49,363 nt of DNA from Candidatus Aenigmatarchaeota archaeon (lineage in GTDB: Archaea; Aenigmatarchaeota; Aenigmatarchaeia; CG10238-14; SCSR01): positions 1-49,363 of the forward strand of contig JAWCSL010000005.1 of assembly GCA_039090665.1 (NCBI GenBank), in the 5' to 3' direction. The position numbers were made by a program, and so were the translations under genes. Positions 7,341-21,525 of this stretch are shown here, piece by piece (the first letter of the stretch is position 1; each line of letters opens with the position of its first letter). The notes beneath the pieces were generated by a model. It searched no databases. It had not been told where the DNA came from and saw nothing but the letters and a program-made list of their open reading frames with translations.

Positions 7341-8471
7341 TTGGGTTGGGTCTTGCTTCAAGCGGTTTTAGCATTAGAAGATGGAACAATTTTCAAGGGT
7401 GAAGGCTTCGGTTATCCTTGCGAAGCTTATGGCGAAGTTGTATTTAACACTAGTATGGTTGGTTACACAGAATCTCTGACAGATCCTTCCTACAGAGGCC
7501 AAATATTAACTCAAACCTGGATTTTAATAGGAAACTATGGTGTACCCCCTTTTTCTTTAATCGATAAATTTAACTTTCCATTACATTTTGAGTCAGAAAG
7601 AATACAAGTAAGAGGATATGTGGTTCAAGAAATTGTAAAAAGACCTAGCCACTGGTCAAACAATAAAAGCTTGGATGAATGGTTGTTTGAGCAAAAGATT
7701 CCTGGAATAGAAGGAATAGATACTCGTGAGTTAACAAAAAAACTAAGGAGTAAAGGTGTGATGCTTGGAATATTGAAAGTTGATGAGAAAATTGATGTTG
7801 AAGAAATAAGAGAAAAAATAAAGGAGATTGAAGATCCAAACAAAAGAGATTTAGTAAAGGAAGTGAGTGTAGAAAAACCAATAGAATACAATAGCGACTC
7901 ACCTCTTGTAGTGGTGATAGATTGTGGTGTGAAATTTGGAATATTAAGGAATTTGGCAGCAAGGAATGTTGGTTTAGTAAGAGTGCCTTATGACTATCCT
8001 GTAGAAAAAATTTTAGATTATGAGCCTTCAGGTATTCTCATTTCCAACGGTCCTGGAGATCCAAAAATATGTGAAAAAACAATCCAAACTGTAAAAGAAC
8101 TATTGGAAACAGATTTACCAATCATGGGAATTTGTCTTGGTTGCCAAATTCTTGCTTTGGCAGCAGGTGCTGAGACTTTCAAGCTAAAGTTCGGGCATCG
8201 TGGATCAAACCATCCTGTTCTTGATTTGTTTACCAAAAGATGCTACATCACAAGCCAAAATCATGGATATGCTGTAGATCCAAATAGCTTAAAAGAAACT
8301 GAATTCGAAATTCAATTCATAAATGCAAATGACAAGAGTGTTGAAGGAATAAAACACAAGAAAAAACCAATATTTGCAACTCAATTCCATCCAGAAGCTT
8401 CTCCTGGACCTTATGAAACTGAATTTTTGTTCGATTTGTTTGTGAAGGAGGTGAGGAAATATAAGAGATGA
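7341..8471 (+). CDS. carA: Carbamoyl-phosphate synthase small subunit
   Basis: LEDGT, GEVVFNT, SNGPGDP, GICLG nucleophile, QFHPE; the start may be the TTG at 7353. Confidence 0.97.
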   Translation: MGWVLLQAVLALEDGTIFKGEGFGYPCEAYGEVVFNTSMVGYTESLTDPSYRGQILTQTWILIGNYGVPPFSLIDKFNFPLHFESERIQVRGYVVQEIVKRPSHWSNNKSLDEWLFEQKIPGIEGIDTRELTKKLRSKGVMLGILKVDEKIDVEEIREKIKEIEDPNKRDLVKEVSVEKPIEYNSDSPLVVVIDCGVKFGILRNLAARNVGLVRVPYDYPVEKILDYEPSGILISNGPGDPKICEKTIQTVKELLETDLPIMGICLGCQILALAAGAETFKLKFGHRGSNHPVLDLFTKRCYITSQNHGYAVDPNSLKETEFEIQFINANDKSVEGIKHKKKPIFATQFHPEASPGPYETEFLFDLFVKEVRKYKR

Positions 8472-11400
8472 AAGCATAAAAAAAGTTCTCATACTAGGTA
8501 GCGGTGCAAAGTGTTGAAAAAACACGCACACTCAAAATAGGAGAAGCTGGAGAATTTGATTACTCTGGAGCACAAGCAATTAAAGCTTTGAAAGAAGAAG
8601 GAATAAAAGTGGTTCTTGTAAATCCAAACATAGCAACAATCCAAACAGATGAAAAGTTTGTAGACAAAGTATATTTCTTGCCTATAACACCTGAATTTGT
8701 AGAAAAAGTAATAGAAAAAGAAAGACCTGATGGAATTTTGTTGACTTTTGGCGGACAAACTGCATTAAATTGTGGTGTAGAGCTTCATGAGAGAGGTATT
8801 TTAGAGAAATATGGTGTGAGAGTTTTGGGAACAGGAATAGAAGCAATTGAAATTGCAGACAATAGGGAAAAATTCAAGAACATTTTGCTCAAGAACAATT
8901 TGCCTGTGCCAAAGAGTGAAAAAGTAAACAGCATAGAAGAAGCTGTGGAAGCTGCCAAGAAGATAGGGTATCCTGTAATGATAAGAGTTGCCTACACACT
9001 TGGTGGTCAAGGGTCTGGTGTTGCTGAAGATGAAGAACAATTGAAGAAAATAGCATCTTTGGGTCTGGTACACAGCAGGATAAAACAAATTTTGGTAGAA
9101 GAATATCTTGGAAAGTGGAAAGAAATTGAGTATGAAGTAATGAGAGATTGTGAAGACAATTGTCTGATTGTATGCAATATGGAAAATTTCGATCCTATGG
9201 GTGTACACACTGGCGAAAGTATAGTGGTTGCTCCTTCACAAACTTTAACAAACAGGGAATACCATTTGTTGAGAATCACAAGTTTCAAAGTCATAAGAGC
9301 TCTTGGAATAGTTGGTGAATGTAACATACAATTTGCTGTTAACCCAGAAAGTGAAGAATTCAAGATAATAGAAGTGAATTCCAGGCTATCGAGATCTTCA
9401 GCATTGGCATCAAAAGCCACAGGCTATCCGATAGCTTACATTGCAGCAAAATTGGCAATAGGCTACACGCTACCAGAACTTTTGAATAAAGTAACTCAAG
9501 TCACAACAGCTTGCTTCGAACCCGCTTTAGATTATATCGTGGTAAAAATTCCAAGATGGGATTTTCAAAAATTCAAAAATGTTTCTAGAAGAATTGGAAC
9601 ACAAATGAAGTCGATAGGAGAAGTAATGGCAATAGGAAGGAGCTTCGAAGAAGCTCTTCAAAAGGCTGTTAGAATGCTTGAAATTGGAAGAGAACTAACC
9701 GACACGAGCGAACTCACTAGCGATAAAGAAAAAATAAAGGAAATGTTAGAAAAGCCTACAGATGAAAGACTTTTCTATATAGTTAAAGCACTTCAAGTTG
9801 GTATGAGTGAAGAAGAAATTCACAAACTAACAGGAATTGATGAATGGTTCTTACACAAGATAAAGAGAATAGTTGAGATGGAAGAGGAAATAAAAAATTT
9901 GAATGAAGATACTTTGAGAAAAGCGAAAAAACTTGGTTTTTCAGACAAAAAAATTGGAGAGCTTGTAGGGAAGAGCGAAAGTGAAATCAGAGAAATGAGA
10001 AAATCTCTTGGAATAGTACCTGTTGTTAAACAAATAGACACTCTAGCTGCAGAATGGTCGGCCAAAACAAATTACCTTTACTTGACTTACAATGGTAATT
10101 ATGATGATATAGAAGTTGAGAAAAAGAGAAAAATTATAGTTCTTGGCTCAGGTTGCTACAGAATTGGTTCAAGCGTAGAGTTTGATTGGTGTTGTGTTAA
10201 TATGGCTTGGGCTCTAAAGGAAAGAGGGTTCGAGAGTATAATGATAAATTGTAATCCAGAAACAGTTTCTACTGATTTTGATATCATGGATAAGCTTTAT
10301 TTTGAAGAGCTCACCCTTGAAAGAGTTTTAGACATTTGTGAAAAAGAAGAACCTGAAGGAGTTGTTGTAAGTGTTGGTGGCCAAACACCAAATAACTTGG
10401 CTCTAAAACTTGCAAAAAATGGTGTGAAGATTATTGGAACTTCTGCCGAAGATATAGATAGAGCTGAAGATAGAGCTAAATTCAGCAAGCTTTTGGATGA
10501 ACTTGGAATTAAACAACCTAAGTGGGGAAAAGTTGAAAATCTGGAAAAAGCAAAAGAATTGGCTGAAAAAATAGGATATCCTGTTTTGATCAGACCTTCT
10601 TATGTGCTTTCCGGCTCTGCAATGAATGTTGCCACAAATGAATCTCAGCTAAGAGAATACTTGACAAAAGCAGCAAAAATTTCAAGAGAATATCCTGTAG
10701 TTATATCTAAGTTTATGACGAATGCTAGAGAAGTTGAAGTTGATTGTGTTTCTGATGGTGAAAATGTTTTTATTGGTGCAATAATTGAGCATTTGGAAAA
10801 TGCTGGCGTGCATTCAGGAGATGCAATAATGAGCATTCCGACACTTACAATAAGTGAAACAATAAAAAACAAGATAAGAGAGTATACTAGAAGAATTGCA
10901 AGAGCTCTCAGAATAAAAGGTCCTTTCAACATTCAGTACTTGGCAAAAGATGGGGAAGTCTATGTGATAGAATGCAACTTAAGGGCTTCAAGAAGTATGC
11001 CGTTCGTTTCTAAAACTATAGGAGTGAATTTGATGGAAATTGCTGCTGATGCTATACTTGGTAAAAAAATTAAAGATGGTGAATATTTGCCAAATGTTTT
11101 TGCAGTAAAAGTTCCGCAATTTTCTTTCATGAGATTGGAAGGTGCAGATCCCGTTACTGGAGTAGAAATGGTTTCAACAGGAGAAGTTGCCGCTTTTGGC
11201 AAAACTTTTGAAGAGGCTTTCATCAAAGCCCTGATAGCTAGTGGTGTTGAGCTTCCGAAAGCTAACGATGGTGTTTTGATTTCAATCGGTGGAGAAAAAA
11301 GCAAAATAATTGAAATTGCAAATAAGCTTGTGAGCAGAAAAATAAATATTTATGCGACTGAAAAAACTTCAGAAGAATTGAAAAAATACGGGATAGAAAA

Positions 11401-11665
11401 TGAAGTTGTGAAGAAGGTTAGCGAACCAAGACCAAATATTTTGGATTATTTGATGAATGGAAAAATAAAAATGGTGATAAATATTCCTTCAACAAATGGT
11501 GTAGTTAGTACACAAGCGTTAGATGATGAATACTTGATAAGGAGAAAGGCTGTAGAATTCAAAGCTTTTGTGGTTAGTAACCTTCAAGTGGCAAAAACTT
11601 TAGCAGATGTTTTAGATTTTTATCACAAAAATGGAGTTGAAAATTGTGTGGAGTTTGAAAAATAG
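8461..11665 (+). CDS. carB: Carbamoyl-phosphate synthase large subunit, join(8461..8509,8532..11665), 1060 aa
   Basis: Spliced N-terminus (M)[28 protein letters not shown]; two ATP-grasp domains and a C-terminal MGS-like domain; SD GGAGGTGA at 8447-8454. Confidence 0.95.
8510..8531 (+). other. 22-nt BHB intron in carB mRNA
   Basis: GTGC[AA^A]GTGTT-GAAAA-AACAC GCAC[AC^T]; contains an in-frame TGA; excision restores frame and the GAIKIG consensus. Confidence 0.88.
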
Positions 11666-12557
11666 GGACATAATTTCAATAAGGGATCTGAAAAAAGAAG
11701 AAATAGAGCTTATTTTAGATGAAGCTGAAGTTATGGAGAAAAAATTGAAAAATGAAGAACCTCTTTATCAGATGAAAGATAAAGTTTTGGCAAGTTTGTT
11801 CTTTGAACCTAGTACCAAAACAAGGTTGTCTTTCAATGCTGCCATGCAAAAACTTGGTGGAAAAGTGATAGAGATCGAATATTCTACAGCAACAAAAAAC
11901 CTCATCGACAAAGTGAAAATGATTGAAAGTTATTGCAATGTTATTGTTTTGAGACATCCTAGAGAAGGGTCTGCAAGATTAGCTGCCGAGATTTCAGAAA
12001 AACCTGTAATAAATGCTGGTGATGGTTCTAATCAACATCCTACCCAAACATTAATCGATTTGTTCACGATAAGAAAATTGAAAGGCAAGATAGAAGGTTT
12101 GAACGTGAGCTTGATTGGAGATTTAAAATACAATGCTGTGATAAAATCTTTGTTTTATGCACTTGCTGTTTTTAAAGCAAACATAACTCTTGCTTCACCT
12201 CCTGAGCTTCAAATGCCGTGGGAAAATATAGAAGAAGTAAGGGATAAGTTCGGTGTTAAAATTTTCCATACAAACAGTCTACATTCTGCTATTGAAGAGG
12301 CTGATGTTTTGTATGTTTGTGGTGTGAAAAAAGATAAGTTTGGCGACATTTTCGAAGCTGAAAAAATACAAAAGAATTTTAGGATAACTCAAGAAATTTT
12401 GGAAAATGCTAAAAAAGATATGGTAATCTTACATCCATTGCCTAAAGACATAGAAATTGATTCAAGCATCGACAAAACAAAATTTGCCAAATACTATGAA
12501 CAAGCCTCTTATAGCTTGCCTGTTAGAATGGCTTTGCTTTCCTTGGTGGTTGCATGA
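11631..12557 (+). CDS. pyrB: Aspartate carbamoyltransferase catalytic-subunit homolog with a degenerate active site
   Basis: FFEPSTKTRLSF, LRHP, NAGDG..HPTQ, HPLP; lies between carB and pyrI; Asp-binding residues substituted. Confidence 0.85.
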   Translation: MELKIVWSLKNRDIISIRDLKKEEIELILDEAEVMEKKLKNEEPLYQMKDKVLASLFFEPSTKTRLSFNAAMQKLGGKVIEIEYSTATKNLIDKVKMIESYCNVIVLRHPREGSARLAAEISEKPVINAGDGSNQHPTQTLIDLFTIRKLKGKIEGLNVSLIGDLKYNAVIKSLFYALAVFKANITLASPPELQMPWENIEEVRDKFGVKIFHTNSLHSAIEEADVLYVCGVKKDKFGDIFEAEKIQKNFRITQEILENAKKDMVILHPLPKDIEIDSSIDKTKFAKYYEQASYSLPVRMALLSLVVA

Positions 12558-20206: not shown

Positions 20207-20320
20207 CCCCGGATAGCTCAACGGTAGAGCAACCGGCTGTAGCTGAGTGCTTAGGCACTTGGTGACAGCAGTTGCTCATCAGAAACCGGTGGGTTGCTGG
20301 TTCAAATCCGGCTCCGGGGA
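20207..20320 (+). tRNA. tRNA-Tyr(GTA) with a 42-nt canonical intron (20243-20284)
   Basis: CCCCGGA/TCCGGGG acceptor (C1-G72); ACCGG CTGTAG^intron^A CCGGT; BHB CTGT[AG^C]...TCAG[AA^A]. Confidence 0.95.
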
Positions 20321-20503: not shown

Positions 20504-20576
20504 GCCTCGGTCGTCTAGTGGTCTAGGATGCAAGCCTGTCACGCTTGAGACACGGGTTCGAATCCCGTCCGAGGCG
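20504..20576 (+). tRNA. tRNA-Asp(GTC)
   Basis: GCCTCGG/CCGAGGC acceptor; CAAGC CTGTCAC GCTTG; GGTTCGAATCC. Confidence 0.96.
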
Positions 20577-20633
20577 CTTCTTTTTATTCAACTCTCTTTG
20601 TATTCAATCTAAAAATAAAAATGTTTATAGGTT

Positions 20634-21407: not shown

Positions 21408-21525
21408 TGTTGGCGACCAAAGCGGGAGGGAAACATCCGTTCCCATCCGAACACGGTAATTAAGCCTCCCAGCGATCTGGGATGTACTCTGCGGTTAGCA
21501 GGGGAATTCCAGGACGTCGCCAACA
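21408..21525 (+). rRNA. rrf: 5S rRNA (stand-alone)
   Basis: Terminal helix TGTTGGCGAC/GTCGCCAACA, conserved CCCATCCGAACACGG and TAAGC; GC-rich island. Confidence 0.93.

Follow-up and report, generated by a model that had tools for sequence, protein, structure and literature searches.

The closest described counterpart of the element considered here is the bulge-helix-bulge (BHB) intron in the cbf5 pre-mRNA of Desulfurococcales and Sulfolobales (Watanabe 2002, Yoshinari 2006, Yokobori 2009, PMC2738675). This work describes introns of 16-44 bp that lie in the coding frame, in the codon for the catalytic Asp, with predicted cuts between the second and third base of each bulge; most have a relaxed BHB motif, their distribution among relatives is patchy, which was read as gain and loss, and their splicing was shown by cDNA and cleavage assays. 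Putative inserts of 12 bp in a virus are also mentioned there, with splicing unproven (PMC2738675). In the accessible parts of the literature on BHB pre-mRNA introns that was searched, crenarchaeal cbf5 alone is named, and nothing is said there on carB, psmA or DPANN protein genes (PMC5829648, PMC6379350, PMC2738675, PMC13149111, PMC8784108). Here, we analyse a 22-nt insert in carB, the gene for the large subunit of carbamoyl-phosphate synthetase, in a stretch of 49,363 nucleotides from a metagenome-assembled genome of Aenigmatarchaeota, a DPANN lineage (assembly GCA_039090665.1, contig JAWCSL010000005.1). This stretch, referred to as the window, is contig 11 of the 15 contigs of the host genome (G000), which comprises 620,606 bases at 33.8% G+C and is 90.6% complete. 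The 22 nt at 8510-8531 are very likely a BHB-type intron of the carB pre-mRNA.

The carB insert resembles the crenarchaeal cbf5 introns: it is likewise very short and in a coding frame, too short for a homing enzyme, patchy among relatives, and mostly relaxed in motif, with predicted cuts between the second and third bulge bases. It differs from them in the gene, in the lineage, in the presence of three sites in carB with up to three introns per gene (relative G055), and in the endonuclease of the host, which has a single alpha-type EndA of 188 aa, whereas the crenarchaeal enzyme is an (alpha-beta)2 heterotetramer with a specific loop. Splicing of crenarchaeal cbf5 has experimental support, whereas splicing of carB is here deduced from DNA sequence.

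HAC1/XBP1 mRNA undergoes unconventional, stress-regulated cytoplasmic splicing, in which Ire1 cuts. The likeness to carB lies in protein-only splicing of an mRNA, with cuts in small stem-loops, joining by an RNA ligase and a change of frame; the differences are the endonuclease, which for carB is proposed to be EndA, and the stress regulation, which belongs to HAC1/XBP1. In animals, the ligase that joins the exons is RtcB. A role of RtcB in XBP1 splicing is named in one further source (PMC8718801).

An interrupted carB gene

In the window, carB is split after codon 17 by the insert, which carries a stop and shifts the frame. The exon-1 frame (full translation GNIRDESIKKVLILGSGA) runs as ...DESIKKVLILGSGA to GCA 8506-08 and then reads KC and the stop TGA 8515-17. 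The continuation, KIGEAGEFDYSG, is in the +1 frame, within an open reading frame (ORF) of 1053 codons (8504..11665); this long frame reads ...KIGEAGEFDYSGAQAIKALKEEG... and stays open to its end at 11665. Deletion of 8510-8531 yields GGT GCA A|TC AAA ATA, that is GAIKIG, within the predicted splice-junction peptide ...GSGAIKIGEAGEF..., and exon 2 is colinear with residues 18-1030 of the CarB of an intronless relative, G017. An earlier note, made from the letters of the window alone, had placed the CarB N-terminus in another frame than the remainder, with 22 nt and a stop between them, all of which can be seen in the window, and had derived GAIKIG from the cut rule, the very junction read in 12 intronless relatives (see below). 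The parts of the gene are as follows.

8461..8509, + strand: carB exon 1 (IRDESIKKVLILGSGA and base 1 of the Ile codon), by translation; its last 11 codons are conserved
8510..8531, + strand: predicted intron, 22 nt; unique best of 4,788 candidate deletions and exactly absent from intronless relatives
8515..8517, + strand: TGA stop in the exon-1 frame, internal to the predicted intron, by translation
8532..11665, + strand: carB exon 2 (bases 2 and 3 of the Ile codon, followed by KIGEAGEFDYSG... as far as the stop), by ORF and Pfam matches to CPSase_L_D2, D1, D3 and MGS

In the proposed mechanism, GUGC of the exon would pair in the transcript with GCAC of the intron, flanked on the inner side by an AAA bulge and a 5-bp hairpin and on the outer side by an ACU bulge or loop. 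EndA would cut each bulge between its second and third bases (8509|8510 and 8531|8532), and RtcB would join the exons to form the Ile codon A|UC, giving GSGAIKIGEAGEFDYSG; unspliced mRNA would give only a 19-residue peptide that ends at UGA 8515-17. Cleavage by this EndA, ligation by RtcB and translation of the spliced mRNA are all steps that we infer.

The window comes from a metagenome-assembled genome in 15 contigs, a setting in which an insert could be an artefact of assembly or sequencing. DNA of the window was found in 10 runs from 5 studies, all of them hot-spring metagenomes, and contigs from four runs in four studies match the window without a difference or a gap over at least 8379-8629. 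The source sample may be represented by three of these runs; the fourth, X9, is not marked as source, and its contig of 251 bases spans 8379-8629. An exon-anchored pattern matched one contig among metagenome contigs, and this was identical to the window. The insert is thus present in the DNA of independent contigs, and variants of it occur in six other species-level genomes, so that an artefact is next to impossible.

The same codon in relatives

A protein search across the order found carB in 19 of 117 genomes, and the junction could be read in 18 loci. Five of these hold an insert, 12 read an unbroken GSGAIKIG and one reads GSGGIQIG. The carriers are G000 (22 nt), G002 and G004 (21 nt), G005 (22 nt) and, from another genus, G080 (19 nt); the unbroken readers include G006, of the same genus as the host, and G079, a congener of G080. 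A search across the phylum (370 genomes, 59 with carB) added two inserts at the same site, one of 21 nt in G195 and an in-frame one of 18 nt, containing a TAA, in G055. This site, termed site A, is therefore occupied in seven species, at the same codon and with lengths of 18, 19, 21 and 22 nt. All of them introduce either a stop codon or a change of frame: the 21-nt insert keeps the frame but contains a TGA, those of 19 and 22 nt shift the frame, and none can be read through to CarB. The comparison of carB in relatives proposed with the original prediction thus yields carriers in seven species and 12 intronless loci that match the predicted junction. In a collection of 185,579 species, an intron-specific pattern was found in only four other species-level genomes, all of them known relatives.

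In G005 (a bin of 1.7 Mb with 4% contamination), a second, intronless carB fragment lies on a short contig (C29, L017). It is identical to the copy in G095, with zero branch length, and is probably bin contamination from a co-binned relative.

Further sites in carB and the position of the predicted cuts

Interruptions of carB are not confined to site A. Site B, between the Glu and Phe codons of GEFDYSG, is occupied in G055 (16 nt), G170 (17 nt) and G293 (34 nt), and site C (NIAT|IQ) in G055 (23 nt), which therefore has three introns in the first ~55 codons of the gene. The site-B and site-C genomes, G055 (L104), G170 (L105) and G293 (L106), belong to other Aenigmatarchaeota families, as does G195 (L107) with its site-A insert. 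When 59 of the 60 carB places were compared by tblastn with the intronless G017 CarB, interruptions were found in 9 of the 59 loci, none of them beyond the first ~55 codons; across the other ~1000 codons all 59 loci were uninterrupted, the gaps there being stop-free indels in variable linkers.

The fold around the window's insert defines where cuts would be expected, and comprises the following elements.

8504..8507, + strand: 5' strand of the central helix H (GUGC), exon sequence; from pairing, RNAfold and an alignment of 7 genomes
8508..8510, + strand: 5' bulge AAA, with the predicted cut at 8509/8510; from RNAfold, AAA in 10 of 11 carB introns
8511..8525, + strand: inner hairpin h' (GUGUU/AACAC, loop GAAAA); from RNAfold, with one compensatory pair, U-A to C-G in G195
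8526..8529, + strand: 3' strand of helix H (GCAC), intron sequence; pair 2 is U-A in four genomes and C-G in three
8530..8532, + strand: 3' bulge ACU, with the predicted cut at 8531/8532; outer closure only by G8503-C8533

GTGC 8504-07 pairs with GCAC 8526-29, and GTGTT 8511-15 with AACAC 8521-25. Every pair that the earlier note had listed for this BHB core, including the AAA and ACT bulges and the GAAAA loop, is present. RNAfold, applied to 8480-8550, predicts a core of the 4-bp helix, the AAA bulge and the 5-bp hairpin at a minimum free energy (MFE) of -14.9 kcal/mol, and the AAA bulge between H and the 5-bp stem appears in both the MFE and the centroid folds. The central helix has exactly 4 bp, as the strict motif demands, and 4/4 pairs form in five of the seven site-A introns.

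The rule tested combines a 4-bp helix and 3-nt bulges with a cut between the second and third base of each bulge (PMC2738675). The 11 breaks in nine carB genes were scanned blind: 36 starts were combined with 133 lengths (8-140 nt), that is 4,788 deletions per break, each scored with BLOSUM62 by comparing the next 20 residues with an intronless CarB. The deletion dictated by the BHB rule was among the best scorers at all 11 breaks and the sole best at all seven site-A breaks; at sites B and C, two or three deletions tie, and the boundary can slide. The central helix has 4/4 pairs in eight breaks and 3/4 in three. Among 239,400 arbitrary deletions in these regions, 3.7% pass a loose BHB flag and 0.5% a strict one; because only 0.5% pass the latter, it is very unlikely that three unrelated sites should all reach the strict form by chance. 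A BHB intron is favoured because the boundaries defined by homology are those set by cutting after the second bulge base.

The range of lengths also bears on translational recoding, in which bypassing (hopping), frameshifting or stop read-through would carry ribosomes over the insert with the hairpin as stimulator. Such recoding could draw on the stable hairpin directly after the break, and the 21-nt and 18-nt versions, being in frame, would need read-through of one stop only. However, a single mechanism would have to deal with eight lengths (18, 19, 21 and 22 nt at site A; 16, 17, 23 and 34 nt at sites B and C), with in-frame stops and with frameshifts in both directions, and read-through would put 6-7 extra residues into the GSGAIKIG loop, which is unbroken in 12 of 13 intronless relatives. 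Bypassing in T4 gene 60 reportedly requires matched take-off and landing codons; in carB, GCA 8506-08 does match GCA 8526-28, but a ribosome landing there would be out of frame and then meet a stop. We consider recoding highly improbable.

Constraint on the split gene and history of the probable intron

Among the four same-genus carB genes that bear the intron, pN/pS is 0.06-0.10 at pS 0.35-0.61 (699-700 aligned codons of the first ~700), and against G080 it is ~0.2. The intron-bearing gene is, by this measure, under strong purifying selection. The same values speak to the view that carB is a decaying pseudogene in this lineage, for which a frameshift and a stop near the start, the lack of a canonical start codon and the presence of carB in just 19 of 117 genomes of the order, which makes the pathway dispensable for many relatives, could be cited. 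Decay is at odds with low pN/pS over ~700 codons at pS of up to 0.6, with the 1044-1055 open codons that follow the break in all carriers, and with the intact carA and carbamoyltransferase genes nearby; moreover, the inserts are the sole lesions in nine genes, and one fixed removal rule restores the protein exactly. It would be most surprising if carB were a pseudogene.

Exon 1 is conserved as well. Although its last 11 codons differ at many nucleotides, the residues they specify are identical in four of five genomes, with one I to L exchange in the other, which tells against the idea that translation of CarB omits exon 1 and begins at an internal codon, for instance GTG 8504, with IKKVLILGSGA as a dead remnant or leader peptide and the hairpin as a translational regulator. 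GTG 8504 does open the 1053-codon ORF, but this codon is not conserved, being GCG in G080, G195 and G055, and the product would begin VQSVEKTRTL, without the first strand and the glycine loop common to all intronless relatives. The logic also fails at sites B and C and for the host cbf5 gene described below, in which exon 1 is a recognisable DKCLD domain. We judge an internal start to be very unlikely.

The intron itself has changed little within the genus: relative to that of the window, it differs by one substitution in G005 and by one substitution and a 1-nt indel in G002 and G004, whereas more than half of the synonymous sites have changed. In a tree of 640 CarB residues from the 18 loci, the four same-genus carriers form a clade (85/93), and G080 falls within a 100/99 clade with the intronless G079 and three other intronless genes. 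Grouping the five carriers as one clade is rejected by an AU test (p = 3e-6), and no fewer than two changes must be assumed. Across four families, the site-A introns show clear sequence similarity. The pattern suggests that either an old intron was precisely lost more than once or the intron has spread from allele to allele.

Interrupted cbf5 and psmA genes

The earlier note had supposed that similar introns might account for other apparently broken genes of this genome, and inserts in cbf5 and psmA agree with this. In cbf5, a 21-nt insert (C10:53755-53775; L161:456-476) is in frame and contains a TAA stop. It forms a full hBHBh' motif, with an outer helix of 4 bp (UCCC/GGGA) and an inner helix of 5-6 bp. 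The 40 residues upstream match DKCLD (E 3.5e-10), and the 276 downstream match TruB_N from profile position 1, followed by TruB_C_2 and PUA. All 11 relatives read, four of them of the same genus, lack the insert and read GPTSH as the rule predicts. The position is ~20 codons upstream of the crenarchaeal cbf5 intron in the catalytic Asp codon.

In psmA, the gene for the proteasome alpha subunit, a 31-nt BHB insert (C2:14624-14654, - strand; L162:725-755) lies at DRT|IAV; its helix is CACG/CGUG, with GGCUG/CAGCC as the inner one. The match of exon 2 to the proteasome alpha N-terminal signature does not begin until profile position 7. Four of 11 loci have the 31-nt insert (G000, G002, G004 and G006), and the other seven read an unbroken YDRTIAVFSP, as predicted. 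By eye, a further 20-nt BHB-like insert is seen at PEY|MGY in the psmA genes of G001 and G002.

All mRNA inserts seen in G000 and its relatives, whether in carB, psmA or cbf5, lie within the first ~55 codons of the gene. This 5' clustering may reflect a need for splicing before the first ribosome arrives.

The carB intron appears, from comparison of these genomes, to be part of a wider, undescribed set in this lineage. The more general proposal, for which we see about even chances, is that BHB micro-introns of 16-34 nt colonise the first ~55 codons of conserved genes in Aenigmatarchaeota, with presence varying within a genus; carB would have three such sites, cbf5 one, and psmA no fewer than one and probably two. 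If this is true, the enzymes of tRNA splicing are needed for core metabolism, the proteasome and RNA modification, and a present-day prokaryote is still acquiring mRNA introns, losing them or passing them from allele to allele. The carB intron would extend archaeal mRNA BHB introns to a new gene, a distant lineage and a homotetramer-like endonuclease, with two more carB sites in relatives and two more interrupted genes in the 0.62-Mb host genome. In practice, gene callers will flag such genes as frameshifted or truncated, and metabolic reconstructions of DPANN can wrongly score carB, psmA and cbf5 as broken. Because one genus includes both carriers and non-carriers, it becomes possible to test directly how prokaryotic mRNAs gain and lose introns, and likewise how splicing coexists with coupled transcription and translation.

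Weighing the intron reading

The reading of the earlier note, a BHB-type mRNA intron in carB, has been strengthened by recurrence of the insert in seven species, by the intronless junctions, by boundaries that follow the cut rule, by purifying selection and by the presence of EndA and RtcB genes in the host. A number of observations weigh against it; these concern the fold, the endonuclease, the start codon, the genome-wide scans and the kind of sequencing runs, and are taken in this order.

The fold energy is modest in comparison with shuffled sequences: z is -2.23 for 71 nt, with 4 of 200 shuffles as good, and -0.7 for 66 nt. The strict hBHBh' motif is not formed, as the outer helix at the 3' bulge consists of the single pair G8503-C8533 (h = 1), and the central helix of G080 and G195 has three pairs and a G.A mismatch. 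The MFE fold pairs the 3' side otherwise (A8500-U8532 and G8501-C8531), leaving the 3' bulge poorly closed, and folds of three relatives have no outer helix in common. Of the imperfect outer helix drawn in the earlier note, G8503-C8533 and the distal TTCTC/GAGAA pairs are indeed seen, the latter in the MFE of the window, but the 3' side of the MFE departs from that drawing. G8503-C8533 is invariant in all seven intron-bearing genomes. Because only this pair closes the ACU bulge from outside, the modelled carB motif is assigned to the relaxed HBh' class of PMC5829648, not to strict hBHBh'.

Covariation comes from seven related sequences and is supporting rather than decisive. An alignment of the seven site-A introns is paired in 65 of 67 cells, with compensation from U-A to C-G at two pairs; of 500 shuffles, one attains the covariation score, and six slid controls gave no compensatory change. 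With five sequences, 89 of 500 shuffles reach the score, which is not significant.

The endonuclease raises two further difficulties. In an alignment with M. jannaschii EndA (phmmer), the Lys of the catalytic Tyr-His-Lys triad falls on an Ala (RLAHNIRA) in the host enzyme. In addition, cleavage of relaxed motifs has been shown only for EndA of the (alpha-beta)2 and epsilon2 types (PMC5829648), whereas the enzyme here is of the alpha type. The same study describes DPANN as having alpha4-type EndAs that carry an L3 loop and are associated with disrupted tRNA genes (PMC5829648). The host gene, the single PF01974 match (94.8 bits), is a 188-aa ORF with both Pfam EndA domains (G000 C12:23808-24371, - strand; L001:1474-2040), nearest to the M. 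kandleri and M. jannaschii chains, and has a 6-residue insert relative to M. jannaschii between the catalytic Tyr and His. The Ala recurs in 27 of 30 relatives read, and an EndA of ~188 aa is single-copy in 64 of 68 genomes of the family. Most genomes of family f5 have an additional EndA homologue of ~400 aa, a size that fits the three-unit epsilon type. RtcB is likewise a single match (PF01139, 547 bits), uninterrupted and free of stops.

That EndA works despite the Ala is implied by the many tRNA introns of the genome. Of 38 tRNA matches, 23 exceed 80 nt, and ARAGORN finds introns in 16 of 36 tRNA genes. Removal by the BHB rule followed by re-scanning gave clear tRNA introns of 12-40 nt, some of them off the canonical position 37/38: tRNA-Thr(UGU) has a 23-nt intron after position 30, tRNA-Gln and tRNA-Lys have introns of 38-40 nt at 37/38, and there are several mini-introns of 12-15 nt. 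These share motif geometry and size range with the carB intron. They differ from it in that the tRNA stem gives them a strong outer helix of 3-7 bp and an inner one is often absent, the reverse of carB with 5 bp inside and 1 bp outside, and in that the carB substrate is an mRNA, also engaged by ribosomes.

The exon-1 frame of carB has no ATG, GTG or TTG between the stop 8452-54 and IKKVLILG, and for this reason ATA 8461-63 is the likely start. The two elements that would initiate translation are these.

8447..8454, + strand: Shine-Dalgarno-like GGAGGTGA ahead of carB; kept in four same-genus intron-bearing genomes
8461..8463, + strand: ATA, the likely non-canonical start codon of carB, 7 bases after GGAGGTGA

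We infer that GGAGGTGA acts as a Shine-Dalgarno element. An ATA at the equivalent place, 5-8 nt after GGAGGTGA and with no ATG, GTG or TTG in frame, occurs in 6 of 50 carB genes (window 8461-8463; also L104, L152, L153, L156 and L158), and translation in this lineage may be able to start at AUA or AUU. The protein of 1060 aa given in the earlier note is indeed restored if translation starts at ATA 8461-63, but only then, as no canonical start is in frame. In the psmA genes of G000, G005 and G013, ATT or ATA is seen by eye where relatives have ATG.

Genome-wide scans for a BHB motif combined with ORF restoration gave no excess over shifted-cut controls (258 against 250-270, and 184 against 170-182), and cbf5 and psmA were picked by eye among scan hits with strong structure and then verified, which leaves at least two further introns. 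Two other genome scans for structure and ORF restoration likewise showed no excess over such controls (8,772 against 8,820, and 710 against 693.5). Structure plus ORF restoration is a non-discriminating test in a genome of 34% G+C. Several hits were rejected: aIF5A (C1 near 51332) is an intact ORF starting MAKTTAVIKDL, C1:62649, C1:74844 and C12:18371 give low-complexity products, and hits beside CysRS and GlmS, by eye, join separate genes.

Lastly, the 10 sequencing runs found to hold DNA of the window are all DNA runs, with 0 RNA runs among them.

Genomic setting

The genes that flank carB are as follows.

7341..8471, + strand: carA, glutamine amidotransferase small subunit; ORF with Pfam CPSase_sm_chain (E 1.6e-48) and GATase (E 3.3e-54)
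11631..12557, + strand: aspartate/ornithine carbamoyltransferase gene, intact, downstream of carB in the same orientation; Pfam OTCace_N and OTCace

The carA stop, TGA 8469-71, overlaps the carB start region. With carA and the carbamoyltransferase gene as flanks, no homing-endonuclease neighbour was seen at carB, and a blastn-short search of the genome for a second copy of the carB intron returned the self-match only (E 9e-23; next best E 0.28). Elsewhere in the window, tRNA-Tyr(GUA) (20207-20320, + strand) measures 114 nt with an intron of ~42 nt and lies close to tRNA-Asp (20504-20577) and 5S rRNA (21409-21525); this tRNA-Tyr was missed by default ARAGORN and was detected by Rfam and by the intron mode of ARAGORN.

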